Position numbers and translations under genes: made by a program
In this document: piece after piece, positions 12,252 through 36,222 of the stretch
Layout: the number at the start of each line of letters is the position of its first letter
How positions within the stretch are numbered: the stretch's first letter is position 1
Assembly: GCA_963675595.2 (NCBI GenBank)
Contig: CAXXLZ010000002.1
Span: 96,001 to 160,000, forward strand
Direction of reading: 5' to 3'
Length of the DNA stretch: 64,000 bases
DNA from: Thermodesulfobacteriota bacterium
Lineage (GTDB): Bacteria; Desulfobacterota; Desulfarculia; JACQYL01
The notes under the pieces: generated by a model
Database searches by the model: none
What the model was told of the DNA's origin: nothing
The model's input: the letters and a program-made list of their open reading frames with translations, nothing else

Positions 12252-12263
12252 GCGATCATGCTG

Positions 12264-20447: not shown

Positions 20448-20712
20448 CCCATCCCTTTTCCTTAATAAATCAAGCAGGTTATTCGACCGACTCCCGCGCC
20501 CGCCCGCCCCTGTCGTGTTTGACCAAAAGCGCATGATCCTCAAAGCGCAGCGCGATCCCGCATCCATTCCCGGACGCGGGCCCTTCCTCATTTCTCTTTC
20601 GTCTGTGGACGTCATTTTCGTCACCCCCTCTCCTCCCACCCAACGTCGTTCGTTTCCCTGATTCATGCGTAATTTTAGATAGTTCCAACTATGTCACTCT
20701 CCGTCCTCTCCA

Positions 20713-20728
20713 CGGCACATCGCTTGCT
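20713..20728 (+). promoter_or_regulatory. sigma54 promoter of methylamine operon
   Basis: CGGCACATCGCTTGCT (GG-N10-GC) between activator gene and mttC. Confidence 0.72.
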
Positions 20729-20847
20729 CTTACAGTGATGATGGGATGCCGTCGATGGATTCGAATTTCAACCTTCAATTACTCGGGGAGGTGATTTCTC
20801 AGATTAGAGCCCCAAGTCCGAAAATCAGATGAAAGGAGGGTAACCTT

Positions 20848-21492
20848 TTGAGCAAAGAAGCATTGATTGAGAAGGCCAAACAGGTGGTCATCGAAGGCGA
20901 CGAAGACGGCGCCGTGGAATTGGCCAACAAGGTGATCGAAGAGGGCGTCAACCCCGTCGAAATCATCAACGAAGGGTTGACGCCGGGAATGACGACCATC
21001 GGCGACATGTTCGGGAATGAGGAAATTCCTCTACCCGGCGTGTTGGTCGCCGCGGAAGCGATGACCAAGGCCATCGAAATCCTGGAGCCTCACATTCCCA
21101 AGGACAGCTCTTCCAAGAAGATCGGTACGGTGGTCATTGGAACCATCGAAGGGGACATCCACGACATCGGTAAACGGATCGTGGCCACGATGATGCGCGT
21201 GTACGGCTTCGACGTGCACGACCTCGGCCGAGACGTACCCATCGGCGACTTCGTGAACACGGCCAAAGAAGTCGGGGCGGATATCGTGGGGTCTTCCACT
21301 CTGATGACCACCACCATGGCCGGTCAGAAGACTCTGGAGGAAGAGCTGAACAAAGCGGGGATCCGGGACAAGGTCAAGACCATGATCGGTGGAGCGGCGA
21401 CGACTCAGGAATGGGCCAACAAAATCGGCGCGGACTGTTACGCCGAAGACTCCACGGACGCCGTGAGAAAGGCCAAAGAGCTCATTAGTTAA
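20848..21492 (+). CDS. mttC: Trimethylamine corrinoid protein
   Basis: B12-binding EGDIHDIGK motif; TTG start with AAGGAGG; directly before mttB. Confidence 0.85.
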   Translation: MSKEALIEKAKQVVIEGDEDGAVELANKVIEEGVNPVEIINEGLTPGMTTIGDMFGNEEIPLPGVLVAAEAMTKAIEILEPHIPKDSSSKKIGTVVIGTIEGDIHDIGKRIVATMMRVYGFDVHDLGRDVPIGDFVNTAKEVGADIVGSSTLMTTTMAGQKTLEEELNKAGIRDKVKTMIGGAATTQEWANKIGADCYAEDSTDAVRKAKELIS

Positions 21493-21563
21493 GGGAGGTG
21501 CACAGGTGATCCCAAGGCGACCGGAAATGGAAACACCAGACTTAGCGGAAAGGAGGTGAAAGG

Positions 21564-23027
21564 ATGATTCGAGGACTGAAAGCCGGAGTCATGAATCTGG
21601 AAGGCTTCGGTTTGAACATGTTCAGTCGTGATCAATTAGATGAACTCCACTATGCAACCCTCGACGTCCTTCAGAACTACGGCGTCCAGGTGTATTGCGA
21701 CGAAGCCCTGGATATTTTCGACGGAGCCGGGGCCTTTGTCGACCGAAAGACCAATCAGGTGCGCATCCCCGCCAATTTGGTGGAAGATGCCATTATATCG
21801 GCACCCAGTACGATTCTGCTGGCGGGACGTACGCCGGAATACGACGTCACCATCCAGCCTCGTCGACTCGGTTTTACCTGTTTCGGCGCGGGCGTCATGG
21901 TTGTGGACCCCTTCAACGGCGAATTCCGGGAGTCCAACAAGACCGACGTGGGTCACACGGCATTGGCTTGCGACGCCATGGATAACGTGGACATTTATTC
22001 CAGCGCCGTGGTGGCCAGGGATATTTCGGGCCCCGCCACCGACCTTCACGAAGCGGAAGCGTTTCTAAGCAACACCATGAAACACTGTCAGCACATCGAT
22101 TTGACGGGCGGCCCGGGAGCCAAGAAGTTCTTTGAAATGGCCGCGGCCGTCGTCGGTGGGCTGGACAAGCTGCGGGAGCGGCCCTTGGTATCCGCTCTGG
22201 TTTGCCCTACGAGCCCCCTGCAGCTCCACACCCATACCGCCGAGATCATCATTGAGTGCGCACGGTACGGGGTGCCCGTGAACGTTCTTTCCATGGCCAT
22301 GTCGGGAGCCTCTTCCCCGGTCACTCTGGCGGGAACCCTGGTGACGCACAACGCGGAAGTGCTCAGCGGCATCGTGTTGCACCAGCTCACCGCCAAGGGA
22401 GCGCCGGTCATTTACGGCAGCTCGACCACGACCTTCGACATGAATTACACCACCGCTCCCGTTGGTTCGCCTGAATTGGGAATGATCAGCGCCGGCGTGG
22501 TGGAACTGGCTCGTTACTACATGCTTCCGAGCTACGTCGCGGGAACATAGGCTGACAGCAAACTGTCCGACGCTCAGGCCGGGCATGAAAAGACCATCAC
22601 CTCTTTGCTTCCGGCGTTGGCGGGCGCCAACTTGATCTACGGGATGGGAATGCTGGAGTTAGGAGTGACTTTCAGCTTCGCTCAACTCCTGATCGATAAC
22701 GAAATCGCCGGGATGGTCAAAAGAGTGGTCCAGGGCATTCATATATCGGACGCGACCCTCGGGGTCGAGCTGATCAAAAAGGTCGGAGCCGGGAAGGACT
22801 TTCTCGCTGAAAAACACACCAGAGAGTGGATGGGATGCGAGCAGTCCAAGGTGAAGTTGATCGACCGCAGAATGCGAGGAAACTGGACGCGAAGAGGGGC
22901 CAAGGATCTGGGGCAGGCCGCCACGGAAAAGGCCAGGGAGCTTCTGGAAACCCATAAGGTGCCGGCGCTTCCGGACAACGTGCTGTCCACGTTTAGATCC
23001 ATCATTGAGGACGTTGAGAACGAATAA
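21564..23027 (+). CDS. mttB: Pyrrolysine-containing trimethylamine:corrinoid methyltransferase (487 aa, Pyl329)
   Basis: ORFs 21564-22550 and 22605-23027 are in one frame separated only by TAG 22548-22550; read-through YVAGT-O-ADSKLSDAQAGHEKT matches the MttB Pyl site. Confidence 0.95.
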
Positions 23028-23443
23028 CGTCCTTTCGGCATAGACACCGATCGGAGGCAAAGCGGAGAACGGAACCCTTAACTCGATGAAACCTTTCGTC
23101 CGGATTGCAGAGTCTCTCCGGGTGAAGCGAATTCGACGAGAACCGGGGCCGTACCGCGTGCCGACGTCACTTACGGGCTTGGGAATCGGGCCGAAGGCCC
23201 GTTTCCCGGTCCTTTTCACCCGGTCCGGTTTCGGGTGCCGGGTTTCGCAGTCTCCCTTACGTCCACCGTCCGGCATATGCTGCGAGCCCGAAAAACAACG
23301 AGGTTCAAACCATATCCGAGTCGTTGGCTCGGTACGGGGCTTCAAGCTTCTCGGAGTAACCAACGATGCCACGCGTGTGATCGATACGACCGTCGGATGG
23401 GTGTACCGCGCGATCTAGACAAAACGAGTTGGAGGAGGACTGA

Positions 23444-24511
23444 ATGCAGACATTAGAACAAGCGAGAGTTCAGTACCGGAACCGTTCGGTGAAATGGGGG
23501 TTCATCTGGGCGCTCTGGTGCGCCATCCTCTGGGGCGCTTGGTACGTCCCCGGCACCGCGGTTTGGTACGAAGCTCCCTTCGTCGACATGGCCTTCGAAA
23601 CCCCGGGAGAAACTTTGCTCGCGGCGGCGATCATCACCACGCTGAATGCGGTCGCCGTCCTGCTTTTCCTGTTCATTTGGGTGGGGACCCTCGGGAAGCT
23701 GTCCGATTATGGACGAACCATACGGCAAATGAAGAAGATATCCTTCTGGTATTTCTTCGCCGCGATTTTCGGAGGGCCGTGCGCCATTTACGGATCTTAC
23801 CTGGCCATCGCCTATGTAGGGCCCGTTTTCGCGGCCATCGCCGCTCTCCTTTATCCCGTAGTCGGGGCCACCATCGCCCGCCTCTGGTATAATGAAAAAA
23901 TAACGACTCGGGCCGCTCTTGGGATATTCATCATTATCTCCGGCGGCGTGGTCGTCTACGGTCCGGGAATTTTCGGTGAGATGTCCGGTGCCTCGGACGC
24001 CTCCTGGATCGGCTACCTTGGGGGAGCCATGGCGGCTCTCGGCTGGGGGATCGAAGGAGCCATCGCGGGTCGTGCCCTGGACGTTACTGATCCCGACGTG
24101 GGCATCACCGTCCGATTCACCGCGGAAACCGCTTATTGGGTGTTCATTATCCTTCCGCTGGTCGCTCTGTTCAGCGACGCGCCCGTGTGGTCTCTCGTGG
24201 GACGGACGCTGACTTCCATGGGAGTGGTGTGGCTCCTGCTGGCCGGCATCACCTTCGCTTTCTGTTACGTGTCCTGGTACAAATCCTTCCCCCTCATCGG
24301 CGTGGGTCGAGGCCAGGCCATCGCGGACCTTTACGGCGTCTTCGCCGTGTTATGGCTCCTTATCTTCACTCTGGACGTTCCCCAATGGAATTTCGTGATC
24401 GGATTATTGCTCACGATCTTCGGCGGTTTCGTCATGTACACCGAAAAATCCGAAGTCATCGAAGTCGTCCGCGCCGTGGGCAAGGGCGATGAAACTGCGG
24501 AGGCATGCTGA
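23444..24511 (+). CDS. mttP: DMT/EamA-family transporter, MttP-like methylamine permease
   Basis: About 10 TM helices with two EamA-like halves; RBS GGAGGAGG; follows mttB. Confidence 0.75.
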   Translation: MQTLEQARVQYRNRSVKWGFIWALWCAILWGAWYVPGTAVWYEAPFVDMAFETPGETLLAAAIITTLNAVAVLLFLFIWVGTLGKLSDYGRTIRQMKKISFWYFFAAIFGGPCAIYGSYLAIAYVGPVFAAIAALLYPVVGATIARLWYNEKITTRAALGIFIIISGGVVVYGPGIFGEMSGASDASWIGYLGGAMAALGWGIEGAIAGRALDVTDPDVGITVRFTAETAYWVFIILPLVALFSDAPVWSLVGRTLTSMGVVWLLLAGITFAFCYVSWYKSFPLIGVGRGQAIADLYGVFAVLWLLIFTLDVPQWNFVIGLLLTIFGGFVMYTEKSEVIEVVRAVGKGDETAEAC

Positions 24512-24801
24512 TGGGACAGGTTCATATGAAAGGTTTCATCCTCCAGCTTCTGGCCAAGAACCCCGACGGATTGTGGGACCACGAGATATCCAAGGAAACT
24601 CTGGCGCAATATGATTGCACCGGAGACTATTGGAAGTCCACGGTTCGTGTAACCCTGACGGACCTTTATTCCGGCGGACTTGTGGAAGAGCTTGAGGATA
24701 GACTCGACCAGGGAGAACATTTTGGACCGGGCAAGGTATTGGTGAAATTCAGACTAAGCGACTTCGGTCGTTCCCGTATGCAGGATACCGGTCTCTTGTA
24801 A
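24511..24801 (+). CDS. Small hypothetical protein (winged-helix-like) coupled to mttP
   Basis: TGATG overlap with mttP, RBS GGAGG; ILQLL...WDHEI...LTDLYSGGLVE...FRLSDFG. Confidence 0.7.
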   Translation: MGQVHMKGFILQLLAKNPDGLWDHEISKETLAQYDCTGDYWKSTVRVTLTDLYSGGLVEELEDRLDQGEHFGPGKVLVKFRLSDFGRSRMQDTGLL

Positions 24802-24833
24802 CGTCACCATGATATCATCGGAGGGAATGCATC

Positions 24834-24944
24834 ATGTCGTCTTTTTGGGGTTATACCGGAGCGGACATTTTAGCAATCGTCCTCATCACGGCTTTGAGCC
24901 TGGTGTGCCTGTACCAAGCGCGCACCTTTGTAAAGAAATTATAG
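24834..24944 (+). CDS. 36-aa single-pass membrane peptide
   Basis: GGAGG 9 nt upstream; MSSFWGYTGADILAIVLITALSLVCLYQARTFVKKL-TAG; below ORF track cutoff. Confidence 0.65.
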   Translation: MSSFWGYTGADILAIVLITALSLVCLYQARTFVKKL

Positions 24945-25116
24945 TCGGGAACCGTTGGGCTGAGTAGAACTTTATAACCTGTCGGCATTATTCGACATAC
25001 CGCCCATCATTGTCAATTGTGGAGACCCATCGGGTCCTAATGTCCCATTGAACCTTTCCCGAACTCTGGTTTGATGATATAAACATGCATAAATAGAAGG
25101 GAGGTGAAAGCAAGAC

Positions 25117-25764
25117 ATGGATAAGAAAGAATGGTTCGAGAAAGCGGCCAAGACCGTGCTTGACGCGGATCAGGAAGCAGCCGTTAAGGTGGCTGAGGAG
25201 GCCGTTGCAGCCGGTATCAACCCCTTGGAAATGCTTAACCAGGGTTTTTCGGAAGGGATCATGCGTATTGGTGATCTTTTCGACCGAGGAGAAGTTTTTC
25301 TCCCCGAACTGATCATCGCTTCCGAAGCAATGGTCGCCGCCGTCAAGGTGCTGGAAGCGGCGTTGCCCGCTGAAGAACACAAGGAGAAGCTGGGCAAAGT
25401 CGTCATCGGAAGCATCGAAGGAGACGTTCACGACATCGGCAAAGGAATCATGGTCACCATGCTTCGCGTGTACGGGTTCGAGGTCTACGATCTCGGAAGA
25501 GACGTTCCCATCAAGTCCTTCGTTGACAAGGCGAAGGAGGTGGACGCGGACTTTGTGGGTTCTTCGGCCTTGATGACCACCACACAGGTGGGCCAGAAAG
25601 CGCTCGAGGCAGCACTGAGTGAAGCGGGACTCCGCGACAAGGTAAAAACCATGGTGGGCGGTGCTGTGGCTACCCAGCACTGGGCCAACAAAATCGGCGC
25701 CGATCTTTACGCCGAAACCGCGACGGAAGCCGTTATGAAGCTCAAGGAGCTTGCAGGCGGCTGA
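25117..25764 (+). CDS. mtbC: Dimethylamine corrinoid protein
   Basis: EGDVHDIGK motif; RBS GGAGGTG; directly before mtbB. Confidence 0.85.
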
Positions 25765-25780
25765 GAAGGGAGGTGAGTCC

Positions 25781-27181
25781 ATGAAGAAATACCTCACCCG
25801 TCGGGGTGACGGAGTCCGCATCGAGATGACGGATGACGAACTCAGAGCCGACTTTGAGTCGGGCATCCAGGATGCGGCGGAAAGAGGGAAGATCGACCCC
25901 CTTTCCAACGAGGACCTCGACCGGCTGATGGACATTTTCACTGATCCCAATCGAATCGTCGGTGTGGAACCCGGGAACGAAGTTCCCTTGACCCACGATA
26001 TCGGTACGCTTCGTTTGATGGGCGATCAGGGAAACAGCGGCGTGGGAATACCGCTGAGCAGGGTCCACGGGATCCAGGTGCATGAACGGGCTTTCTGTTC
26101 CGACTCCATGGAGCTTGGACACATTGATTACAGCTTCAAGCCCATTAAACCCGTGATCGCCATGGAACAGCAGGAGTACGAGAATGCACAAATGTGCACG
26201 ATCATTCCTCTGTTGTACGGCGCCATGCCCAATCTGGGCCTTTATTACGCCCCGGACGGCCCCTTCGGGAACCCGTCCGATCTCTTGCCCGCGGGCAAAG
26301 TCAAAGAGGCGCTGGAAGCCCAGGAACAAGCGGTGGAACACGCCACCAAAGACATGATCTATATCTCCGAGAAGCTCGCAAATGTGGGCTGCGACGGGAT
26401 CAACTTCGACACCACCGGAGCCGCGGGCGACACGGATTTCGCCGCCACGCTCAAGGCGGTGGAACATCTGAAAAAGACCACCAACCTGGCCGTCCAGGTG
26501 GGCATGGCGGGCGAGTTCGTTCTGGGAATGCACGGCAGCCTCAAGTACAACGGAACCAGGCTGGCCGGGCTCTATCCCCACAAGCAACTCGAATTGGTGG
26601 AACAAGCGGGGGCGGACATCTTCGGACCCGTGGTAAACACCAAGCCGAGCAAGTCCATGGCTTGGAATCTGGCCCGGGCGGTTACCTTCGTCAAGGCGTG
26701 TACGGCCGTCGCCAAGATTCCCATCCATGTGAATATGGGAATGGGCGTGGGCGGCTCCCCCGTTTTCGAGACTCCGCCCATCGACAGCGTGACCCGCGCA
26801 TCCAAGGCCATGGTGGAAATCGGCCGCGCGGACGGGTTGTAGATAGGCGTGGGGGACCCCCTTGGGATGCCGATAGCTCACGGCATGGCAGCAGGCATGG
26901 GCGGAATCAGGACGGCCGGAGATCTGGTGGTCCGAATGCAACTGAGCCGCAAGATGCGGATTCAGGAAGCGAAAGCCTATGTGGCCGACAAGCTGAAAGT
27001 ATCCCCGGTAGACCTGTCGGACGAGAACGTGATGAGAGAAGTCCGCGAGGAGCTGGACATCGGAGTCATCACTTCGGTCCCGGGTTGTGCCAAAGGAATG
27101 GAAGCGAAAGCGAAAATCGCCGACTTGCTCGGCATTGAAATCAACAGTGTCAGCCGTTTCAAACGGAAGCTCGGTCTATAG
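25781..27181 (+). CDS. mtbB: Pyrrolysine-containing dimethylamine:corrinoid methyltransferase (466 aa, Pyl354)
   Basis: [11 protein letters not shown] start with GGAGGTG; in-frame TAG 26840-26842 in [15 protein letters not shown]; GIRTAGDLV motif downstream; ends at TAG 27179-27181. Confidence 0.95.
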
Positions 27182-27191
27182 ACCGGAACAA

Positions 27192-27215
27192 GCGGGCTTC
27201 CCTCGGGAAGCCCGC
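27192..27215 (+). terminator. Strong hairpin after mtbB (terminator or transcript-stabilising)
   Basis: GCGGGCTTCC-CTCG-GGAAGCCCGC followed by a short CCTTT. Confidence 0.55.
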
Positions 27216-27275
27216 CCTTTCAGGCGCCCGCTGGAGAGCACCAGACTCCCGGACGCCAATACAAGGAATCATTTG

Positions 27276-27866
27276 GTGAGCCGAAAAAACACACCCGACC
27301 TTCAGTCAGCGTTCCATTCCGCCGACCCCTCTTTGGAAGAAGCGTTCGAAGCGGTCTCCCGGGAGCACGGCGTTCGCGTGTATCCTCTTGAATTGGAGAG
27401 CATCAAGCCTTCGTACAGCATCCGTCTCAAGTGTCAGGTGCCCTTGTGCGAATATTACGGTGTGTCCAAAGTATGCCCGCCGAACATCCCGGATGTCCCC
27501 GAATTCCGTGAAGCGATGAAGGATTATCGGATGGCGTTTCTGGTGGTGTACACGGAACGCATCGACAACATTCAGCACTATCGAAAGGACTTCACCGCGG
27601 AGCGAAAGCTCGCCGACGCGGTCTCCGCCTTGGAGGCGGCGGCTTATCGGCACGGTTGGTATCGGGCGTTGGGACTGTGCGTGGGGGGTTGCAAGCTGTG
27701 CCCAAGCTGTGCGGGGGCCGACGAGCCATGTCGGCATCCCTTTAAGGCCCGCCCCAGTCCGGAAGGGTTCGGCATCGACGTAACCGAACTCGCCCGCAAT
27801 CTGGGAGTGGCGGTCGAATGGCCTCCCCGCGACCAAGTCAACTTCTTGGGCCTTCTGTTCCTCTGA
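27276..27866 (+). CDS. DUF2284-type Cys-rich putative metal-binding protein
   Basis: RLKCQVPLCEYYG..CPP, GCKLCPSC...CRHPFKARPSPEGFGIDV; start at TTG/GTG 27273/27276 after AAGGA. Confidence 0.82.
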   Translation: MSRKNTPDLQSAFHSADPSLEEAFEAVSREHGVRVYPLELESIKPSYSIRLKCQVPLCEYYGVSKVCPPNIPDVPEFREAMKDYRMAFLVVYTERIDNIQHYRKDFTAERKLADAVSALEAAAYRHGWYRALGLCVGGCKLCPSCAGADEPCRHPFKARPSPEGFGIDVTELARNLGVAVEWPPRDQVNFLGLLFL

Positions 27867-27968
27867 TTCGCGACCAGGCACGGTATGAAACCGCCGTTTC
27901 TTTTTCTTCTTCAGGAATCATCGTCTCGAGAATCATGATCGAGGCGAGATGGAGTTTGAGGATATATA

Positions 27969-28937
27969 ATGTTCAGCATGCTCAGCTGTTATGATCGGGT
28001 CCGCAAGGAAGTCGTCGGCAGGGAAGTGGAAGCCAAATCCATTCTCGTGGCCATGGATGCGGGAAAACACATACTTCTCGAAGGACCTCCGGGAACCTCC
28101 AAGTCCACTCTTTTAAGAATCATCGCGAAGGAAAGCGGCATCCCCTTGTATATCATCGAAGGCAACATCGATCTGACCCCGGCCAAGCTCGTGGGGCATT
28201 TCAATCCCTCCAAGGTGATGTCCGACAGCTATCAGCCCGAATATTTCGAAAAGGGTCCCCTGACGAACGCCATGGAAGTAGGAGGGATACTGTACATCGA
28301 GGAATTTAACCGGATGCCCGCCGACGTAGCCAATGTACTCATCTCCCCCATGGAAGAAGGCGAAATGACCATTCCCAGGTACGGCAAGATCAAGGCCGTA
28401 CGCCCCTTCACCGTGATCGCGGCCCAGAACCCTTACGATGATGTGGGCACCGTGAGGGTGAGCAGGGCCTTTATGGATCGGATTTGCCTGATCCGCATGA
28501 CGTATCAGAGTGAAGAAGAAGAGATGGAGATCGTACGGAAAAGATCCACGTCCGAGGATCTCGAAGCGATCGCTTTGGCGGTGGCCATGGCGAGAAAGAC
28601 CAGGGAGCACGAGGACATCAAGCTGGGAGCGTCCGTGCGTGCCGCCATCGATCTGGCGGACATCTATTGGGGACTGCAGAAACTGGCCCGGGACCCGGTC
28701 CGGAACTTCCTCATCGCCGCAAGAATGGCCATGTCCAATAAAATATGGCTCAATGAGATGGCCGCCGACACGGCGGATACGATCATTGAACAGATTTTCG
28801 CCTCCCTGCGCAGCAAATACGGCCGCTTTTTGTACAGGAAGGAAGGCGACGAGGCCGGCGACGGCGTGGAGACGTCGGGCCAAGAATCCCTCGAAGCGGA
28901 CTTGGATATCGAAGAAAAAAAAAAGATCGCTATGTAG
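27969..28937 (+). CDS. MoxR-family AAA+ ATPase (short, 0-frame product)
   Basis: LLEGPPGTSKS Walker A, LYIEEFNR Walker B, AAQNP, AFMDR; acidic tail. Confidence 0.9.
   Translation: MFSMLSCYDRVRKEVVGREVEAKSILVAMDAGKHILLEGPPGTSKSTLLRIIAKESGIPLYIIEGNIDLTPAKLVGHFNPSKVMSDSYQPEYFEKGPLTNAMEVGGILYIEEFNRMPADVANVLISPMEEGEMTIPRYGKIKAVRPFTVIAAQNPYDDVGTVRVSRAFMDRICLIRMTYQSEEEEMEIVRKRSTSEDLEAIALAVAMARKTREHEDIKLGASVRAAIDLADIYWGLQKLARDPVRNFLIAARMAMSNKIWLNEMAADTADTIIEQIFASLRSKYGRFLYRKEGDEAGDGVETSGQESLEADLDIEEKKKIAM
28915..28925 (+). other. A10G slippery site, candidate -1 frameshift / transcriptional slippage
   Basis: GAA GAA AAA AAA AAG puts A_AAA_AAG in the correct phase; -1 frame is open and continuous with the vWA ORF. 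Confidence 0.7.
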
Positions 28938-28960
28938 GGGATAAGTTCCTCGATCGGATT

Positions 28961-29791
28961 ATGACGGGGTCGTCCTATTATTACCGGGTGGCCACGCACC
29001 TGAACAACAACCCGGACGATCTGGTCCCTTTTTTTGAGAAGCAGGACTCCCTGGAAGTATTCGCCAACATTCTGGGGATGCTGAAAAAGGACGTGAGGGA
29101 GATGGCGGCCCAGATCGCCGGCCGCATCATCATCAAGATCGCCAAACAAATCGCGGACACGGGGACGCGTTCCGGCAAGCTCAAGTTGGTCAGAGGGTGG
29201 GTGGACGGCGCGGAACTTGAGCTCGATCTGAGCCTTGAACAATACACCGAAGCGCCCGAGTTGGGCATCGTGGAAAACCTGGTTTCCTATATCAGAAAGC
29301 GGGAGAAGGAAGCCTTCATCATGTTCCTGGACCACAGCTACTCCATGAAGGGGCTCAAGATCGTTTTAGCGGCCATCACCGCGGCTTCCATCGCTCAGCA
29401 CTTCAAGCGGGACTATGCCATCATGGCGTTCAGCAATTCGGTCACCATGCTCAAAGCCATCGACGAATCCACCGGACCCGAGGAGATTCTGCAAAGGCTC
29501 TTCGCTCTGGAACTTTATGGCGACACGGATTTTCAGCGGGCGTTGGAGGCCGGCCTTTACCACCTGAGAAACTTCGACCGGAAGAGAGGGCTGATTCTAA
29601 CGGACGGAGCCTGGAACCAGGGTGGAGATCCACTGGACGCGGCCGCTCGTTTCGACAAGCTCAGCGCCATAGGCTTTCCCCCGTCCAAACACGAAAAAAT
29701 CAGGATTCTGGCGCTCAAAGGCAAAGGGGAATGCGCCTTCGTGGAAAACCAGCATGAGATATCTCGAGCCATCATCCGTTGCCTGAACTGA
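28961..29791 (+). CDS. von Willebrand A domain protein (probably C-terminal part of an AAA-vWA fusion 27969-29791)
   Basis: MIDAS DHSYSM, GDTD, ILTDG; weak RBS; frame open upstream through the poly-A site (KKKDRYVGDKFLDRIMTG). Confidence 0.88.
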   Translation: MTGSSYYYRVATHLNNNPDDLVPFFEKQDSLEVFANILGMLKKDVREMAAQIAGRIIIKIAKQIADTGTRSGKLKLVRGWVDGAELELDLSLEQYTEAPELGIVENLVSYIRKREKEAFIMFLDHSYSMKGLKIVLAAITAASIAQHFKRDYAIMAFSNSVTMLKAIDESTGPEEILQRLFALELYGDTDFQRALEAGLYHLRNFDRKRGLILTDGAWNQGGDPLDAAARFDKLSAIGFPPSKHEKIRILALKGKGECAFVENQHEISRAIIRCLN

Positions 29792-29846
29792 CTCCACGAC
29801 GGAACGCGAATCCATCATGACCGAAAGCGTAAGAACGAAATCCAAA

Positions 29847-29918
29847 GGAGGGTTGATCGGCAAGATCATGAAGACTCTAAATCTTCACAGCCGGGTTGAA
29901 CTCCCGGACCCTCCTCCA
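29847..29918 (+). tRNA. pylT: tRNA-Pyl (anticodon CUA)
   Basis: Acceptor GGAGGGT/ACCCTCC, 1-nt linker, D arm GATC-GGCAA-GATC, 6-bp anticodon stem TGAAGA/TCTTCA with loop CTCTAAA, 3-nt variable CAG, T arm CCGGG-TTGAACT-CCCGG, T73, CCA; directly before pylSn. Confidence 0.96.
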
Positions 29919-29961
29919 ATTTTCGTATCCGTTTGCCGACGGTGCATGAAGGCGTAGACTT

Positions 29962-30288
29962 ATGGGCATGCCTCAACGAAAAGCACCAGCGGCGACGAAG
30001 AAGGCGAAGAAGACTTTCTTTCGCAAAAGAGAAGACTTGGGAATGGTGCTTCAAAAGGTGAAGCTCTGGCCTTCGCGGAACGGGACCCTGCATGGAGTGC
30101 GCACCATCGTGGTGAAGGGAGCTTTCATTGATTTCACCACCCATTGCGGCCAGAAGCTACGCATCAAGAATTCGAAGAGCAGCAGGGTGTCCCGGTGGCT
30201 CAGGAACAAGTGGTACGTCAGACCTTGTTCCGGGTGTCGGGTCCCTACATGGAAACTTGAGAAATACTCCCAAACGTCTTTTCGATAA
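29962..30288 (+). CDS. pylSn: Pyrrolysyl-tRNA synthetase N-terminal subunit
   Basis: KLWPSRNGTLHG...THCG...NSKSSRVSRWLRNKW...CSGCRVPTWKLEKY signature. Confidence 0.95.
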   Translation: MGMPQRKAPAATKKAKKTFFRKREDLGMVLQKVKLWPSRNGTLHGVRTIVVKGAFIDFTTHCGQKLRIKNSKSSRVSRWLRNKWYVRPCSGCRVPTWKLEKYSQTSFR

Positions 30289-30343
30289 CCGACGAGTTCG
30301 ATCCTTCGCCGATCGATCTCCACGATGGAAGGTGAAAGTGCCC

Positions 30344-31516
30344 ATGACCGGACGAGACAATCGTCTCACAGCTGTTTTGGACGGAGTGCTGCAAGGAGGC
30401 GCCCTATCCCGCCGAGACGCGGAAACCCTGCTTTCCGCTTCAGACCCTCAGGATGTGGACAGAATTACCCAAGCGGCCCGGATCATGAGGGCGCGGCTTT
30501 TCGCCGACTCCGTTTTTCTTTACGGTTTCGTCTATTTTTCGACCTATTGCAGGAATTCCTGTACGTTTTGTTTCTACCGCAGGGGCAACAAGCAAAGCCC
30601 CAGGTACCGAAAGACCGAAACGGAGGTCAAGGACATCGCCCTCGGACTTGCCGCGTCCGGGGTTCATCTGGTGGATTTGACCATGGGTGAGGACCCATGG
30701 ATCTACGAGCGGCAGGATTACGGCGTACTCTACCGGATAGTGGGAGGCATCCGAGACGCCACGTCGGTTCCCCTCATGATTTCGCCCGGAGCCGTGCCCG
30801 ACGAGGTGCTCCGGACCTTGGCGGCTCAAGGTGTGGACTGGCTGGCCCTGTACCAGGAAACCCACAACCGAAGTCTATACGGGAAGCTCAGAGTCGGACA
30901 GAGTTACGACGAACGGGTGGAAAAGCGGAATCTGGGCGCACGGCTGGGAATGCTCGTGGAAGACGGGATTCTGCTGGGCGTGGGAGAATCCGTGCGGGAC
31001 CGGGCGGATTCCATCATGAACATGCGCTCCGGCGGATCGGACCAGGTCCGCGTCATGAGCTTTGTTCCGCAACCGGATACCCCCCTCGCCGATCGACAAA
31101 CGCCTCCCAGGCGACTCGAGCGCCTTTGCATCGCGGTCATGCGCCTCGCCATGCCGGATCGGCTGATCCCGGCTTCTCTGGACGTGGACGGCATCAACGG
31201 GCTGCGGATGCGTCTCGAAGCGGGAGCCAACGTGGTCACTTCCATCATACCGCCCCGAAGTCGCCTCGCGGGAGTTTCCCAGAGCAGTTTGGATATAGAG
31301 CCCGGTCACAGAACCGTGGCGGAGGTACGGAAGATTCTCGACGATATGGGCATGAAAGCGGCTTCCTTGTCTGAGTATGAATCATGGATGAAACAAAGAA
31401 AGCTGTTGAAAACCGGCCGGTCGGAACAAATCCAAATCGGTCTTTCCGCACTTCCCGACACGCACGCCGGCGACGTACCGAGCCATCCCCTCGGTCTGCA
31501 TCACACATATCCTTGA
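30344..31516 (+). CDS. pylB: 3-methylornithine synthase (radical SAM)
   Basis: FLYGFVYFSTYCRNSCTFC, DLTMGEDP, IPASLDVDG, AGANVVTSIIP; start ATG 30344. Confidence 0.93.
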   Translation: MTGRDNRLTAVLDGVLQGGALSRRDAETLLSASDPQDVDRITQAARIMRARLFADSVFLYGFVYFSTYCRNSCTFCFYRRGNKQSPRYRKTETEVKDIALGLAASGVHLVDLTMGEDPWIYERQDYGVLYRIVGGIRDATSVPLMISPGAVPDEVLRTLAAQGVDWLALYQETHNRSLYGKLRVGQSYDERVEKRNLGARLGMLVEDGILLGVGESVRDRADSIMNMRSGGSDQVRVMSFVPQPDTPLADRQTPPRRLERLCIAVMRLAMPDRLIPASLDVDGINGLRMRLEAGANVVTSIIPPRSRLAGVSQSSLDIEPGHRTVAEVRKILDDMGMKAASLSEYESWMKQRKLLKTGRSEQIQIGLSALPDTHAGDVPSHPLGLHHTYP

Positions 31517-31653
31517 GCCCGAAAGCCGTGAGCCCTGAGACCCCTCGGGGCCCGGAGGAACGCCGACGAGGCAAGACGGCACCCCCTTTCGGCGTCGGCG
31601 GAATCGCAGCAACTGCTGATCCAGCCATAACGCAAAACCTGGAGGTAACCTAA

Positions 31654-32655
31654 ATGACAGCCAAAGAACGAGTCATGGCCGTCCTGAACCACGAGAAACC
31701 GGATCAAATGCCCGTTTTTGGGGCAAATTCCACGGTCACCTATGATCAAATGGAAAAGGTATCCGCTTTCTGGCCTAAAGGTCACGAGGACGGCGAGACC
31801 ATGGCCAAGCAGGCCATGGCCGCTTACACCATGCTGGGATTCGATGCGGTCCGGGTCCCTTTCTGCCAGACCTTCGAAGCGGAAGCTTTGGGATGCAAAG
31901 TCAAGTCGGGCGGCGACAAGGGTATTCCCGGCATTGATCATCCCCCGCCGTACAAGCTCGAGGACACCCCGGCCTTCCCCTCGGACTTCCTTTCCAGAGG
32001 GCGGATTCCCGAGTTGCTCAAGGCCGTCCGAATCCTGAAGAAGGAACTCGGCGACGACGTGCCTATTGTCGGCGGGATCATCGGGCCTTTTACCATCACC
32101 GGGTCCCTCATCGACACGGTTCCTTTGTTGAAGGCCACCTTCAAGACACCGGAAAAGATCCGCCCGTTCATGGAAGTGGCGGAAAAAGCGGGCACCGAAC
32201 TGGCAAAAGCTCTTATCGACGCGGGAGCGGACATCATCGCGGTCGAGGATATGACCGCCTCTCCGGAGCTCATCGCTCCCCAGACCTACGGAGATTACGA
32301 GGTCGAATACCAGAGCAGACAGTTCAAGGCCATCTCAGTGCCCAAGATTCTCCACATCTGTGGAAACGTGGACAAGATCGTGCACTGGATGGGCGAGACC
32401 GGTCCGGATGTCCTCAGCCTCGAGCCTAAGGCAAGTGCCAAACTCGCCCGGGAAAAATGTGGACCGGATATGATTCTCATGGGAGGAGTGGACACGGCCA
32501 CCACGCTGTTCATGGAATCGCCCGAGACGGTGAAAAAAGGGTGCGAAGCCTCCATCGCCGACGGAATCCAGATATTGGCTCCCGGATGCGCCGTGGCTCC
32601 GGGAACGCCCCTTGATAACCTGTTGGCCATGGTGGAAGTGGCTCGGAGCCGTTAA
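31654..32655 (+). CDS. mtbA: MtaA/MtbA/CmuA-family methylcobamide:thiol methyltransferase (UroD fold)
   Basis: GFDAVRVPFCQTFEAEALG, Zn motif LHICG and APGC. Confidence 0.85.
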   Translation: MTAKERVMAVLNHEKPDQMPVFGANSTVTYDQMEKVSAFWPKGHEDGETMAKQAMAAYTMLGFDAVRVPFCQTFEAEALGCKVKSGGDKGIPGIDHPPPYKLEDTPAFPSDFLSRGRIPELLKAVRILKKELGDDVPIVGGIIGPFTITGSLIDTVPLLKATFKTPEKIRPFMEVAEKAGTELAKALIDAGADIIAVEDMTASPELIAPQTYGDYEVEYQSRQFKAISVPKILHICGNVDKIVHWMGETGPDVLSLEPKASAKLAREKCGPDMILMGGVDTATTLFMESPETVKKGCEASIADGIQILAPGCAVAPGTPLDNLLAMVEVARSR

Positions 32656-32688
32656 GTTTTCCGGAATCAAGGCATCCGAAAGGCGTTT

Positions 32689-32898
32689 ATGGAAACAACC
32701 AAGGCCTGCACTCGTTGCGGCAATAAACATACGGACGCGGAGAAAGTCGCAGGGAAGCGTTTGTCCTGTACCGAAACCAAAGAGTTTTGGGCCGACATCA
32801 GTAGAAGACATCTCGAGCTTTACGGTCACCGGGCTCATGCCACGACCAACGAAGCCGGAGAATGGATTTGCTGGGAGTGTAAACGCAGGCTTTGCTGA
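32689..32898 (+). CDS. Small Cys-rich protein (CxxC...CxxC)
   Basis: CTRC and CWEC, 69 aa, co-oriented between mtbA and ramA. Confidence 0.55.
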   Translation: METTKACTRCGNKHTDAEKVAGKRLSCTETKEFWADISRRHLELYGHRAHATTNEAGEWICWECKRRLC

Positions 32899-33143
32899 TT
32901 TAAGCAACTCACCATGAAGAACGGATCGGACCCGGGGGAAGCCCTCTCACTTTTCACCACTCGAAAGAAGGGCATTCCTCGGGCGTGATGAATCCGGCAG
33001 TTCATCGAAAATGTCGGATTCTTGCAGGCGGACCCGACCGTCGCACCCATCCGGATGCACCGGGTTCGCCTCTTTTCTTGCGTTTTGTCGCGGAACACCC
33101 TTGCCGAAATGCACTTTCCACCCGTTTCCCATAGGAAGTGATC

Positions 33144-34820
33144 ATGACCCGCATCGGTATTGCGATAGACCTGGGAACCAGCGGCTTCAGAGGACAGGCC
33201 CTGGATTTGGACCGGACCGGCCGTGTGCTCTCCACGGCGGTAACCGCGAGACATCCCCTGCCCGGAGCCAACGTGATGGATCATCTTCATTGCGCTCTCG
33301 AACTTGGAGTCGAGTGGGCGCAACAGGTGATTGTTTTCTCCGTCAACCGAATAGTCGCCGCTCTCGGCATCGATCCCCAACACGTGGTTCGCTTGGCCGT
33401 GTGCGGGAACCCGATCCAGTTGTCGATCTTTCAAGGGATCGAAATCCGAGACCTGGCCTACGCGGGTAAACGAAAACTCGAGGCATTGGGCGTGGTTCCA
33501 CCGGATCGCGACGCCCGGAAGATCAAGGCACGGGAAATCCCGGGGCTGGCGCTTCCGGGTGAGGCGGAGGTGCTCATTCCTCCGGCGGTCCGACACGAGA
33601 TAGGCGCCGACGCTCTAGCCATGATGATTCGGACGGGCATGCTGGAGAAAGACGAAATCGCCATCGCCACGGATTACGGCACGAACGCCGAAATGGCCCT
33701 CGTGGTGAACGGCACGGTCTACACCGGTTCCACCGCCGCCGGGCCGGCCCTGGAAGGCCAACAGATCGAAGATGGATTGCTGGCCCTGCCCGGAGCGATC
33801 TGCGAGGCCTCCTATCTGCGCGGTAACGCAGCTCCAGGCACCCAAGACGACTGCGGTCGCTTCGGAGTCCGGGTTCTGGACGAAGAGATGACGGCTCGCA
33901 CGGGGAGTACGGTCGATCCCTGTTCGGGAGAAACCCTGGAGCGCGGAGACGTGTCGGCCGTGGGCATAACCGGCACCGGGGTCGTTGCGCTCATCAGTGA
34001 GGGCATCAAGAGCGGACTCATCCAACCTCCGAAAATCAAGACCCCCGACGCCGCGATCCATCTGGCGGACGGAGTGAAGTTCTCGGAGAAGGACCTTTTG
34101 GAGGCCGGAAAAGCCATCGGTTCCGTCCGCGCCGGCCATTTCACACTCTGTCAAGAGGCGGGCATCAACCTCGAAGATGTTGAGGCGGCCTACATGTCGG
34201 GAGCCTCCGGTACGTATGTCAATGCCCTCAAAGCCCAACATCTGGGCATGATCCCTCCTGCCGTGAAGAAGATATATCAGGTGGGCAACACCTCCCTGGC
34301 CATGGCCCGAGAGCTGGTCTTGGATGCGGATGCCCTCTGGAAGATGAAGGAGGTCGCCGACGCCCTCAGACAACACCACTGCATGTTCGCCGTTTCCAAG
34401 ACGTTCGAGAAGGTCTATGTGCTTGAATTGTCCGTTTGGTCCGACGGTCTGACCATTGAGCAATACCGGATGTTCCTCAAGAAGTACAAACTCCCCACCC
34501 TTCCGGAAATCTCCGGCTCGGCCGAGGTCGTGAAAACGGAGGAGAAAGATATCGCCGAAGTGGGGGAATTGGGCCTGACAATCCTTACCGACGCGGGCAT
34601 GAAAAGGACTCTCGTATTCAGTGGCTGTGCCGGGGATTCTCTCTGTGTGGCGGAATGTCCGGAAAATGCACTCCGCATCCACGAAGCGGGAGAGGAGTTC
34701 GCCGTCACCATCGATCTCGCCCTCTGCAACGGTATGGCTTGCCGGAGATGCGAAACGATCTGCAACGAGCGGGCCTTTGACTGGGTGCGTCTGATCACCA
34801 TCGGAACCGGCTCTGCGTAA
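33144..34820 (+). CDS. ramA: Methylamine methyltransferase corrinoid reductive activase
   Basis: AIDLGTSGFR, RHPLPGANVMDHL, TDYGTNAEM, GSTAAGPALEG (ASKHA) plus C-terminal ferredoxin-like domain. Confidence 0.93.
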   Translation: MTRIGIAIDLGTSGFRGQALDLDRTGRVLSTAVTARHPLPGANVMDHLHCALELGVEWAQQVIVFSVNRIVAALGIDPQHVVRLAVCGNPIQLSIFQGIEIRDLAYAGKRKLEALGVVPPDRDARKIKAREIPGLALPGEAEVLIPPAVRHEIGADALAMMIRTGMLEKDEIAIATDYGTNAEMALVVNGTVYTGSTAAGPALEGQQIEDGLLALPGAICEASYLRGNAAPGTQDDCGRFGVRVLDEEMTARTGSTVDPCSGETLERGDVSAVGITGTGVVALISEGIKSGLIQPPKIKTPDAAIHLADGVKFSEKDLLEAGKAIGSVRAGHFTLCQEAGINLEDVEAAYMSGASGTYVNALKAQHLGMIPPAVKKIYQVGNTSLAMARELVLDADALWKMKEVADALRQHHCMFAVSKTFEKVYVLELSVWSDGLTIEQYRMFLKKYKLPTLPEISGSAEVVKTEEKDIAEVGELGLTILTDAGMKRTLVFSGCAGDSLCVAECPENALRIHEAGEEFAVTIDLALCNGMACRRCETICNERAFDWVRLITIGTGSA

Positions 34821-34835
34821 CCCCGGAGGCGAGTC

Positions 34836-35468
34836 ATGATCCAAGAAACCATTATCAGAGCCCTGGTCGTCGCTTTGAAGCGTGTACGAGGCATCAGCGA
34901 GGTCTTGCCCTTGGACGATCAGGATCGTCTGCGTATCCAAGAAGTCGAGAACGAGGCTCAGGAACGTTCTCTCATGGGACTGGGCAAAGTAGTGAACGAC
35001 GGAGTCATCGAGGTTCTGAGTCGCCCCCTCGTTCTGGCGGCTCTTACAACGATGGAGTTCGACTGGGGGCTTCGTCCGAGTTTGGTGCTCAAGAAAGGCC
35101 CCGTCCTGGTGGGCGAGGAGGTTCGAGACCCCGACCGTTTGTCGGAGCTGGGCCGCAATGAAGACGCTTGGTTTATGCACGAGAATTTTGTAATCTACAA
35201 AAGCCGCATGTCCTTCCCGAGAGACCTGCTCACCAAGGACTGCTTCTTCGAGATTCCGTGGTATCCGGCGGAATGGGACGAACTCCAGGGCTTGGGATCG
35301 GGGGCGCCACCCATGATCTACGGCTTTGTGTCTCCCCCCGCGGATGCCTTTCTGAAGGAGAAATATTTCCCCACGGCTGAGGAAAAAGGAATGGGGACCA
35401 TCCTCATTGGAGTGGGCCTCCAACCCGGAGAAACCGACGGCAATCCCGCGTCGCCCGAAGCTGCGTAA
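34836..35468 (+). CDS. Hypothetical protein in methylamine operon
   Basis: RBS GGAGG, 210 aa, directly after ramA. Confidence 0.75.
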   Translation: MIQETIIRALVVALKRVRGISEVLPLDDQDRLRIQEVENEAQERSLMGLGKVVNDGVIEVLSRPLVLAALTTMEFDWGLRPSLVLKKGPVLVGEEVRDPDRLSELGRNEDAWFMHENFVIYKSRMSFPRDLLTKDCFFEIPWYPAEWDELQGLGSGAPPMIYGFVSPPADAFLKEKYFPTAEEKGMGTILIGVGLQPGETDGNPASPEAA

Positions 35469-35502
35469 CTTCCGTGACGCCGTCAATCAGTGAGGTCGCA
35501 CA

Positions 35503-36222
35503 TTGCGAATCGCCATACTACAGCACGATCCCGCCGACGGACCCGGCACTCTCGGCGCTTTTCTGAATGAGGCCGGAACGGATGTGTTCACCGTCAAATT
35601 GGATGCCGGGGAGTCGATTCCCCGGCCTGAAGACTTCGACGTTCTCATCTCAATGGGAGGTCCCATGCATGCATGGGACGAGAACGAGTATCCCTTCCTG
35701 GACGACGAGCTGATCCTCCTCCGGAAGGTCATTCCCGCCGGAGTACCGGTTTTCGGATTCTGCCTGGGCGGGCAACTCATGGCCAAAGCCCTGGGCGCCG
35801 AAGTGCGTCCCGCCGCCAAAACGGAAATCGGATGGAGAAACGTTGGGTTGACGGAGGCGGGACGAAGCCTCTCTCTATTCGACGGCCTGCCCGATGAAGT
35901 CCAGGTGTTCCAGTATCACTATGATACCTTCCAGATACCTTCGGGCGGAGAACTCCTGGCCTCTTCTCCGGACTGCCGAAACCAGGCTTTCCACCGTTTC
36001 AATGCGGTGGGTTTTCAATTTCACGTGGAAGTGGATCGAGCCATGTTGGAAGAATGGTTCAAAGACCGCGAGGATCGAGACGCGGTGCTCGAGGAATTGG
36101 CGCTGCGTTGGCCCACCTTTTCCGCTCAGATGCAGCGTTTCTACACCAACCTGGTGAAACTCGCCGAAGGAATGCTCCGCAAAACGACCACGGAAGAGAA
36201 CGGCCTGCGGAGGGCGTGCTGA
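35503..36222 (+). CDS. Type 1 glutamine amidotransferase-like protein
   Basis: MGGPM, GFCLGGQL (Cys), QFHVE (His-Glu). Confidence 0.88.
   Translation: MRIAILQHDPADGPGTLGAFLNEAGTDVFTVKLDAGESIPRPEDFDVLISMGGPMHAWDENEYPFLDDELILLRKVIPAGVPVFGFCLGGQLMAKALGAEVRPAAKTEIGWRNVGLTEAGRSLSLFDGLPDEVQVFQYHYDTFQIPSGGELLASSPDCRNQAFHRFNAVGFQFHVEVDRAMLEEWFKDREDRDAVLEELALRWPTFSAQMQRFYTNLVKLAEGMLRKTTTEENGLRRAC

Follow-up and report, generated by a model that had tools for sequence, protein, structure and literature searches.

Pyrrolysine (Pyl)-dependent methylamine systems were reportedly the subject of an earlier study by Zhang and Gladyshev in 2007. Pyl-dependent trimethylamine (TMA) and dimethylamine (DMA) methyltransferases are already published for sulfate-reducing Deltaproteobacteria (Kivenson et al. 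2021, PMC8318568); the passage of that paper on the second methyl-transfer step of the bacterial pathway terms it uncharacterised, and bacterial MtaA-type enzymes are taken, in the relevant part of PMC5770442, to pass the methyl group to tetrahydrofolate. Here we compare with these systems a gene island in a 64,000-nucleotide stretch (the window) of contig CAXXLZ010000002.1 from a Thermodesulfobacteriota bacterium. Because TMA and DMA use of this kind by Deltaproteobacteria is in print, the core pathway of the island is known and not new. With a probability of about 0.6, we read the locus as a whole as an acquired Pyl-based island for TMA and DMA demethylation that carries a recoded helper ATPase and a set of genes that would service corrinoid proteins.

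An initial annotation made from the sequence alone had claimed a bacterial Pyl-based TMA/DMA demethylation island at this position, and family scores above cut-offs, conserved in-frame TAG codons and matches to Pyl insertion elements make its presence almost certain. Gene identities come from Pfam and NCBIfam family scans, the tRNA from ARAGORN and the Pyl insertion elements from Rfam (Table 1). The family scans and ARAGORN also bear out the earlier listing of mttC, mttB, a permease, mtbC, mtbB, DUF2284, pylT, pylSn, pylB, ramA and a glutamine amidotransferase (GATase).

Both methyltransferase genes are interrupted by a single TAG. In mttB it lies in frame at 22548–22550 (residue 329 of 487), a column that holds an in-frame stop also in 52 of 54 MttB matches of at least 45% identity, and the Rfam element PYLIS_3 (22548–22647, 80.1 bits) begins at the first base of this codon. 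The start of mtbB was moved to ATG 25781, which is preceded by a ribosome-binding site; its internal in-frame TAG at 26840–26842 (residue 354 of 466) falls in a column with an in-frame stop in 92 of 92 MtbB matches, and PYLIS_2 (26840–26939, 80.6 bits) again starts at the first base of the TAG. RamA combines RACo_C_ter and Raco_middle domains with a C-terminal Fer4 domain (Fer4_7). The earlier remark that the window holds no mtmB is correct, and the gene is likewise absent from the 98%-complete host genome. Immediately 3' of the mtbB TAG stop, a strong GC-rich hairpin (gcgggcttcc ctcg ggaagcccgc, window 27190–27215) may act as a partial terminator or stabilise the mRNA, setting mtbCB above the helper genes.

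Table 1. Coordinates (window positions) of the island genes, their upstream regulators and associated elements, with the supporting match for each
Feature	Position	Strand	Evidence or remark
PAS-rich hybrid histidine kinase, candidate island sensor	15761-19054	+	Pfam PAS x4, HisKA, HATPase_c, Response_reg
Sigma-54-dependent response regulator	19051-20421	+	Pfam Response_reg, Sigma54_activat, HTH_8
Candidate -24/-12 sigma-54 promoter, cGGCAC-N5-TTGCt	20713-20727	+	One-mismatch match, 121 nt before mttC
mttC, corrinoid protein MttC	20848-21492	+	TIGR02370 253.7 bits (cut-off 215.3); B12-binding, B12-binding_2
mttB, TMA:corrinoid methyltransferase	21564-23027	+	TIGR02369 725.7 bits (cut-off 525)
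EamA/DMT-type permease, MttP-like by context	23444-24511	+	Pfam EamA 44 bits
orf98, small conserved protein 3' of permease	24505-24801	+	Conserved at 43-55% identity
mtbC, corrinoid protein MtbC	25117-25764	+	TIGR02370 244.2 bits
mtbB, DMA:corrinoid methyltransferase	25781-27181	+	TIGR02368 655.3 bits (cut-off 369.1); TAG stop
DUF2284 protein	27273-27866	+	PF10050 137.1 bits (cut-off 25); start moved to TTG 27273
MoxR-class AAA+ ATPase, short ChlI-like product	27969-28937	+	AAA_5 80.7 bits; stop TAG 28935-28937
vWA (MIDAS) frame, -1 relative to MoxR	28790-29791 (annotated ATG 28961)	+	VWA_CoxE 32.9 bits
A10 slippery run, GAA GAA AAA AAA AAG (heptamer A_AAA_AAG)	28915-28924	+	4 codons before MoxR stop
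pylT, tRNA-Pyl, anticodon CUA	29847-29918	+	ARAGORN
pylSn, small N-terminal subunit of Pyl-tRNA ligase	29962-30288	+	TIGR03912 109.9 bits (cut-off 51.15)
pylB, methylornithine synthase	30344-31516	+	TIGR03910 449.4 bits (cut-off 348.2); start set at ATG 30344
MtaA/CmuA-family URO-D-fold methylcorrinoid methyltransferase	31654-32655	+	TIGR01463 282 bits (cut-off 235.4)
RamA corrinoid reductive activase	33138-34820	+	TIGR04270 738.3 bits (cut-off 500)
orf210, 210 aa	34836-35468	+	No Pfam model; directly after RamA; nitroreductase-like fold predicted
Class-I glutamine amidotransferase (GATase)	35503-36222	+	PF00117 66 bits

The genome encodes the full Pyl gene set (pylT, pylS, pylB, pylC and pylD), distributed over three separate sites. 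The initial annotation had made its reading depend on pylSc, pylC and pylD, and all three are present, dispersed and above their cut-offs: pylSc lies on contig C2 (C2:161682–162401, 297.6 bits), ∼1.7 kb beyond the window end and ∼33 kb from pylB, and pylC (364.2 bits) and pylD (180.5 bits) stand together on contig C1. An AIPR-CSD gene and an rve integrase just beyond pylD suggest that a rearrangement split the pyl cluster. TAG is not avoided in the host, being the stop of 22.7% of 2,957 long open reading frames (ORFs), so UAG decoding should be conditional. The region of the pylC–pylD pair (L088, C1:122000–141999, minus strand, ∼7633–19867) has, before the pair, a thiolase-like gene and genes for a VWA protein of 766 aa, an AAA+ ATPase of the CbbQ/NorQ type and a URO-D methyltransferase, as well as a 173-aa ORF without assigned family, a CobW gene and a sigma-54 activator gene. 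It presents a second AAA/VWA pair of the host adjoining a URO-D methyltransferase.

DUF2284, the MoxR/vWA pair, orf98 and orf210 are conserved accessory genes. We searched 80 loci around MtbB relatives with all island proteins; many of these loci are short metagenome contigs, and related genomes among them are not independent. DUF2284 was found in 15 loci, MoxR in 14, vWA in 15, and orf98 and orf210 in three each. An IQ-TREE quick search with 79 MtbB sequences places the window MtbB within a clade of 16 members with a Shimodaira–Hasegawa approximate likelihood-ratio test (SH-aLRT) support of 95, and a second large clade comprises 45 members. DUF2284 is present in 15 of the 16 members of the window's clade (the exception is L024), and MoxR and vWA follow mtbB in 13 of the 14 members that have at least 3.5 kb downstream (the exception is L009); L020 and L023 end just past DUF2284. 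The archaeal locus L075 carries the whole set rearranged (mtbC, mtbB, MoxR, vWA, orf210, DUF2284, ramA), and in the Actinomycetota loci L012 and L014 the MoxR/vWA pair lies on the opposite strand. orf210 follows ramA in L010, L024, L095, L099 and L100, adjoins DUF2284 in L075, and belongs to a rare family: a search of 5.8 billion proteins yields 21 relatives, none with a name other than 'hypothetical'. The initial annotation had expected its accessory genes to be conserved with methylamine clusters, which proved right for DUF2284, MoxR/vWA, orf210 and orf98 and wrong for the GATase, a 'Cys-rich' ORF and ORF 24809–24967, each with relatives in 0 of the 80 loci.

The 'AAA/vWA' entry of the initial annotation named two domains that are both present, with the Walker A motif of MoxR (GPPGTSKS) and the metal ion-dependent adhesion site (MIDAS) motif of vWA (DHSYS...TDG) intact. 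What it had listed as two plain genes is, quite probably, a single recoded unit that gives a short, ChlI-like and a long, ChlD-like product. The vWA frame is open from 28790 across the A10 run and encodes ...KKKDRYVGDKFL... across and after the run, upstream of ATG 28961; after the run, the peptide KKK-D-R-Y-V-G-D-x-F-L is conserved in the -1 (vWA) frame across loci. Frames were compared in 15 cases with both genes (14 loci and the window), and runs and starts were counted in 16 cases, with L012 added. The vWA frame is -1 relative to MoxR in 12 of the 15, +1 in one (L026) and in frame in two; in-frame MoxR–vWA fusions were seen in L022 (618 aa), L027 (610 aa) and L098 (611 aa). A run of 9 to 11 A is kept in all 16 cases, L012 and fusions included, and the host's 6.79-Mb genome has only four A/T runs of length 10. 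The 0-frame ends 2 to 14 codons past the run (4–5 codons in 10 of 13 out-of-frame cases), usually at a TAG embedded in conserved GTA GGN (V-G) codons of the -1 frame. For vWA itself, an ATG, GTG or TTG start is missing in 10 of 16 cases, and no Shine–Dalgarno motif was found within 14 nt upstream of the six vWA ATGs.

At E ≤ 0.001 the wider vWA family comprises 1,300 representative clusters, a number that falls to 68 at E ≤ 1e-30. Among the best 150 vWA relatives, 41 are at least 500 aa long and match at their C-terminal end; a Walker-A-like motif lies near the N-terminus in 36 of these 41, and AAA_5 was found in seven of the eight long ones scanned. Sequence relatives of MoxR in the PDB are midasin AAA domains, MoxR 2r44, NorQ (E 4.7e-11) and CbbQ (6.4e-10), and a PDB sequence search with vWA returned nothing useful.

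The break between the two frames might instead be unprogrammed, that is, a homopolymer sequencing error, a decaying gene or DNA-level phase variation. Homopolymers are error-prone, the run length varies from 9 to 11, three frame arrangements occur, and one assembly (X7) breaks at the A-run. We nevertheless consider this explanation very improbable: the -1 arrangement recurs in one archaeon and in members of three bacterial phyla, conservation extends to the peptide of the overlapping frame, the tail read in the 0-frame is uniformly short, and both active-site motifs are intact. Independent contigs show no indel in the A10 run, the match from a second sample being identical and that from a ∼97%-identical relative (another study) carrying 19 substitutions. 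The same design has been validated experimentally in related genes, the relevant part of Antonov et al. 2013 (PMC3711429) giving 10–63% -1 shifting at 7–11 A in 'Mg chelatase' AAA+ genes. We also considered Pyl read-through at the MoxR TAG, in a frame that would end at an ATGA overlapping the vWA ATG, and rejected it because the TAG arises from GTA GGN codons of the -1 frame in nearly all loci.

How the recoding of this single unit would be achieved is less clear. No conserved RNA structure was detected after the A-run (-0.04 kcal/mol, 0 compensatory pairs, 13 sequences), which weighs against a firm choice of slippage mechanism. Combined with the retention of the run in in-frame fusions, where a shift would lead to the short form, this result makes slippage by RNA polymerase the likelier candidate mechanism, with a -1 ribosomal shift on A_AAA_AAG as the second candidate.

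We then asked where the accessory genes stand when MtbB is not used to find them. A vWA profile searched against 401 Desulfobacterales genomes, not conditioned on MtbB, gave 14 matches in 13 genomes, and four of the 13 fetched regions are contigs already seen as L010, L024, L025 and L026. Twelve of the 14 matches adjoin corrinoid-related genes. Five lie with an intact mtbB (L013, L092, L093, L094 and L096). One (L095) lies with a 127-aa N-terminal MtbB remnant (L095:11589–11972, G237) between mtbC and MoxR; here DUF2284 is lost, and intact copies remain of MoxR–vWA, mtbC, the MtaA-like gene, ramA and orf210. Two (L099 and L100) lie in a methanol cluster with an MtaA-like gene (76% identical to that of the window), a corrinoid protein, CobW, a sigma-54 activator, MtaB (674 bits), RamA and orf210. 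In three (L102–L104), a RACo gene of the 2Fe-2S type, DUF2284, MoxR and vWA stand in this order at 27–42% identity, and one (L098) is a 611-aa fusion beside a CobO adenosyltransferase, two CobW genes and a URO-D gene. The two others lie at a contig edge (L101) and with no informative neighbour (L097). In a genome of the host's order (G001; L090, G001:C6:294001–313999), MoxR (76–87% identical in pieces) and vWA occur with no MtbB. Decay after loss of mtbB was considered for these fragmented genes and rejected; neighbouring genes are fragmented too, so an error-rich long-read assembly is a more probable cause than pseudogene formation.

The accessory set is not specific to Pyl or to methylamines, since it also stands beside MtaB, RACo and CobO/CobW genes and is missing from the second MtbB clade (0 of 45 members). 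If taken as specific to Pyl or methylamine enzymes, the maturation module proposed in the initial annotation does not survive this comparison. A related and narrower view would make the trio a maturation factor or activase for the Pyl enzyme MtbB or for PylB, for example by removing Pyl-imine adducts or supplying electrons to the radical-SAM enzyme PylB. The position of DUF2284 directly after mtbB in most of the 16-member clade fits this view, as does that of pylB directly after vWA in L022, L025, L026, L027 and L029. We judge it quite improbable all the same, because the set occurs in methanol and RACo clusters devoid of Pyl enzymes, is retained in L095 after mtbB loss, does not adjoin pylB in Thermincola-type loci, and is absent from the 45-member clade even though mtbB there also has the Pyl codon. 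A literature search, mostly without subscription journals and without supplements, found nothing linking DUF2284, MoxR–vWA or orf210 to corrinoid methyltransferase clusters.

What the DUF2284 and orf210 proteins look like bears on their possible role. DUF2284 has seven invariant cysteines, C54/C59/C68 and C140/C143/C146/C153, spaced as C-x4-C-x8-C-P-P and C-x2-C-x2-C-x6-C. In the L025 orthologue (L025:11475–12041), the C143 position, the second Cys of CKLC, is an in-frame TGA that probably encodes selenocysteine (Sec); a Sec-type TGA at an invariant Cys would indicate a redox-active or metal-binding site. AlphaFold 2 models of DUF2284 and orf210 have predicted local distance difference test (pLDDT) values of 79.5 and 85.9. 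Foldseek found no match in the PDB at E ≤ 1e-3 for either model, and a PDB sequence search with DUF2284 gave nothing useful and no detectable relation. In VIA, 50 of the 50 best matches of the DUF2284 model are nitroreductase-like (Z 5.5–7.7), including BluB (7.2), QueG (7.1), NpRdhA (6.6), PceA (5.7) and MMACHC (5.5); orf210 matches only nitroreductase-like structures, best a BluB-like flavoprotein (Z 7.6). The models thus suggest that both proteins share a nitroreductase-like fold, the Z values supporting fold and not function. A distant sequence relationship between the two was rejected (hhalign probability 0.2%), and a complex prediction for vWA with DUF2284 scored 0.00, which speaks neither for nor against binding. 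The nitroreductase-like fold binds B12 in CblC, QueG and reductive dehalogenases, and the latter two pair it with Cys-ligated Fe–S clusters.

Host paralogues give mixed support for a corrinoid link. An orf210 paralogue stands directly after a CobW gene, and a DUF2284 paralogue lies near CbiM, URO-D and corrinoid-protein genes. A 548-aa O-methyltransferase–DUF2284 fusion (L109:9691–11337, C2 ∼654.7–656.3 kb) lies between ThiC-family radical SAM and B12-binding radical SAM genes, a group that may resemble the anaerobic benzimidazole (cobamide lower-ligand) bza genes.

Genomic context and predicted folds together hint that the accessory set is a corrinoid-protein servicing module, a tentative proposal that we place somewhat below an even chance. 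In the mechanism we envisage, TMA and DMA would enter through the EamA-type permease, Pyl-bearing MttB and MtbB would transfer a methyl group to the Co(I) of MttC and MtbC, and the MtaA-like enzyme would pass it on, most likely to tetrahydrofolate. The methyl group would then be oxidised via the Wood–Ljungdahl pathway, coupled to sulfate reduction, and RamA would restore Co(I) after accidental oxidation by re-reducing Co(II). The short (I-like) MoxR form and the long (D-like ATPase–MIDAS) form may constitute a chelatase-like motor, acting with DUF2284 and orf210 to load, exchange or repair the corrinoid on MtbC-type carriers alongside RamA. The sequence data directly show the enzyme families, the Pyl codons, the complete Pyl gene set, the synteny and the layout of the recoding site, whereas we infer how the island is regulated, where the methyl group goes, how the slip occurs and what the accessory genes do biochemically.

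Several observations weigh against a servicing role. Besides being missing from the 45-member clade, the accessory set was not found in 11 other MtbB-bearing genomes of the host's class, and these absences imply that MtbB works without it. In L097, L101 (at a contig edge) and G001, the neighbourhood of MoxR–vWA contains no methyltransferase gene. A scan of ORFs within and flanking the island revealed no BchH/CobN-type tetrapyrrole-binding domain, which is why we file MoxR/vWA as a chelatase-like motor and not as a chelatase. All VIA Z-scores of DUF2284 and orf210 are below 8, the grey zone of the tool. Finally, a host DUF2284 paralogue adjoins a thioredoxin-domain gene, and DUF2284 also occurs in Bacteroides thetaiotaomicron.

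The clade without the set and the isolated MoxR–vWA pairs would suit an alternative in which DUF2284, MoxR–vWA and orf210 are passengers, a general MoxR chaperone set with no corrinoid role carried by a mobile cassette. The cassette is clearly mobile, its MtbB being 77–82% identical across Desulfobacterota and Bacillota. We regard this alternative as unlikely, however, since the set recurs, rearranged and at 27–42% identity, beside different corrinoid systems (MtaB, RACo, CobO/CobW), since the 12 of 14 corrinoid contexts come from matches that were not selected via MtbB, and since in L095 it has outlasted the decay of mtbB to a remnant, next to mtbC, ramA and the MtaA-like gene. Extending the servicing proposal, the recoded motor with its short and long forms, the Fe–S-type DUF2284 protein and orf210 could together be a general, unrecognised corrinoid loading or repair 'B12-protein activase' beside RamA and RACo for methylamine, methanol and other methyltransferases, passed horizontally between Desulfobacterota, Bacillota, Actinomycetota and archaea; we find this reading rather doubtful.

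The host itself encodes dsrA (585.6 bits) and CODH/ACS (cdhC/acsB, 432.6 bits), and mcrA was not found in its genome, which together identify it as a sulfate reducer with a Wood–Ljungdahl pathway. The cdhC/acsB match (C2:3051948–3053297) is read with two TGA and one TAG inside its frame, for which recoding, gene boundaries or errors are possible explanations. MtbB occurs in one of five genomes of the host's GTDB order and in 12 of 95 of its class. By the taxonomy of record titles, the 16-member MtbB clade consists of nine Desulfobacterota, four Bacillota, L009 (Pseudomonadota), L023 and the window, L023 being labelled Myxococcota and titled 'Deltaproteobacteria bacterium'; its sister group is formed by seven Actinomycetota sequences, followed by 11 archaeal ones. 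The patchy distribution of MtbB in the order and class and a clade that mixes Desulfobacterota with Bacillota suggest that the island was probably acquired horizontally. The 11 other MtbB-bearing genomes of the class score 425–495 bits, versus 652, and their MtbB, though outside the tree sampled, would belong to the second clade.

Around the island, flagellar fliD and fliS lie upstream (window 7720–11653), a tRNA-Cys (45936–46011) and an IS200-like transposase (47207–48175) lie downstream, and composition along the island is unremarkable (GC 0.55–0.59). In the assembly, C2 ∼4,657,000–4,669,000 and C1 ∼8,000–22,000 give identical protein matches at a constant offset of 4,649,345, with equal-scoring DUF2284 copies; the last ∼81 kb of contig C2 seemingly repeat the first ∼81 kb of C1, either as an assembly overlap or as a large repeat.

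The second methyltransferase is the gene that the initial annotation had called 'mtbA-like'. It is a member of the MtaA/CmuA family that stays under the equivalog cut-offs of both MtbA (NF041608, 240.7 vs 600) and MtaA (NF040654, 324.9 vs 400); since only the cut-off of the broad subfamily TIGR01463 is reached, we file it only as MtaA-like. Its product has HIC at 234–236 (H-x-C) and a later Cys in APGCA, presumably the thiol-activating zinc site of coenzyme M (CoM) methylases. This parallel runs counter to tetrahydrofolate as methyl acceptor, which is therefore an assumption. Relatives at 69–78% identity occur in Desulfobacterales methylamine clusters and in methanol clusters; the gene was found in 18 of the 80 MtbB-relative loci and RamA in 17. 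Because the MtaA-like gene is near-identical (∼75%) between the two kinds of cluster, the comparison suggests that one second methyltransferase is common to both.

Relatives of the permease (41–64% identity) adjoin mttB or mtbB in seven of the 80 loci, archaeal ones included. Of the 'two small ORFs' of the initial annotation, the one at 24505–24801 is real (orf98), its relatives in L016, L018 and L019 standing each time directly after the permease; the one at 24809–24967 is not conserved. Atlas clusters of ∼97-aa hypothetical proteins score 0.95–0.97 with orf98, and its nearest named family, the PadR-type winged helix, scores 0.88, a lead only. ORF 24809–24967, a further ORF at 23086–23418 and the ORF at 32612–32917 all have neither a ribosome-binding site nor relatives in the 80 loci, and are judged spurious for these reasons; the last of them, described as 'Cys-rich', contains only two Cys. 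Rfam found no family in the ORF-free gaps 23028–23443 and 32656–33137, even at E ≤ 0.1. The GATase, given its lack of relatives in the related loci, probably lies outside the system.

Directly upstream of the island and on the same strand, the hybrid histidine kinase is by its position a candidate sensor for it, with relatives in 0 of the 80 related loci. The start of the response-regulator gene overlaps the kinase stop, and weak relatives of the regulator (35–43% identity) occur in Thermincola-type loci and methanol loci. The position of the -24/-12 element is consistent with a sigma-54 promoter, weak taken alone; matches to the pattern are no commoner in the window than expected (49 vs 51.2), which lowers its weight. 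Because pylT, pylSn and pylB belong to an island preceded by a two-component sensor and a sigma-54 activator, induction of the pathway probably also switches on UAG decoding. In Acetohalobium, induction of UAG decoding together with its pathway has reportedly been shown.

With this island, the Pyl-using sulfate reducers, known competitors of methanogens for methylamines, gain one more lineage, in which the Pyl machinery is divided among three loci of a genome that often uses TAG as a stop. Its MtaA-like gene may encode the second methyltransferase that has been missing from the bacterial pathway of methylamine use. Cofactor supply and upkeep of the corrinoid proteins of anaerobic methyltransferases are poorly understood beyond RamA and RACo, and the accessory set offers concrete candidates. 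In Desulfofundulus kuznetsovii, genes of 'B12 biosynthesis' are reported to be co-induced with its methanol methyltransferase operon (PMC5770442).

Among described systems, those of marine Deltaproteobacteria (Kivenson et al. 2021, PMC8318568) resemble the island in the passages that describe them: the Pyl residue of MttB is 327 of 485 there and 329 of 487 here, and shared features are a Pyl-containing MtbB, a cognate corrinoid protein, RamA, full Pyl machinery, a sulfate-reducing host and a proposed feed into the Wood–Ljungdahl pathway. They differ in that those genomes were reported without MtbA and a MetH-family second methyltransferase is proposed for them, whereas here an MtaA/CmuA-family gene lies in the island and the pyl genes occupy three sites. 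The term 'DUF2284' is absent from that paper, and its passages on the systems make no mention of the accessory trio or its recoding.

The mtt/mtb/ramA/pyl genes of Methanosarcina share with this locus MttB and MttC, MtbB and MtbC, an MttP-like permease, RamA and an enzyme of the MtaA/MtbA type, the equivalog cut-offs of MttB, MtbB and RamA all being reached. In contrast, our host lacks mcrA and MtmB, its PylS is split into PylSn and PylSc, its corrinoid proteins and second methyltransferase fall below the Methanosarcina equivalog cut-offs, and its methyl acceptor is probably not CoM. For DUF2284, fold matches at Z 5.5–7.2 link the predicted structure to CblC/MMACHC, QueG, reductive dehalogenases and BluB, but flavin mononucleotide (FMN) nitroreductases score equally or better (Z up to 7.7), and no sequence relation to the B12-binding proteins is detectable.

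The class I chelatase components BchI/BchD, ChlI/ChlD and CobS/CobT show the same architecture as the MoxR/vWA unit, an I-like AAA+ protein and a D-like AAA+, linker and VWA/MIDAS protein. Here, however, the island has no H/CobN-type subunit, the partner is a small seven-Cys DUF2284 protein, and the context is one of corrinoid-dependent methyltransferases and not of tetrapyrrole synthesis. CbbQ/CbbO, NorQ/NorD and CoxD/CoxE likewise combine a MoxR-class AAA+ with a MIDAS VWA adaptor beside a presumed client metalloenzyme system; in contrast to these, the pair described here is joined by recoding, and its VWA protein is much smaller than CbbO or NorD. The 'magnesium chelatase' genes of Antonov et al. 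2013, in the part of that work that treats them (PMC3711429), share with our locus the AAA+ gene, the second ORF in the -1 frame, the poly-A junction and fused versions elsewhere, so that the recoding device itself is already published for related AAA+ genes.

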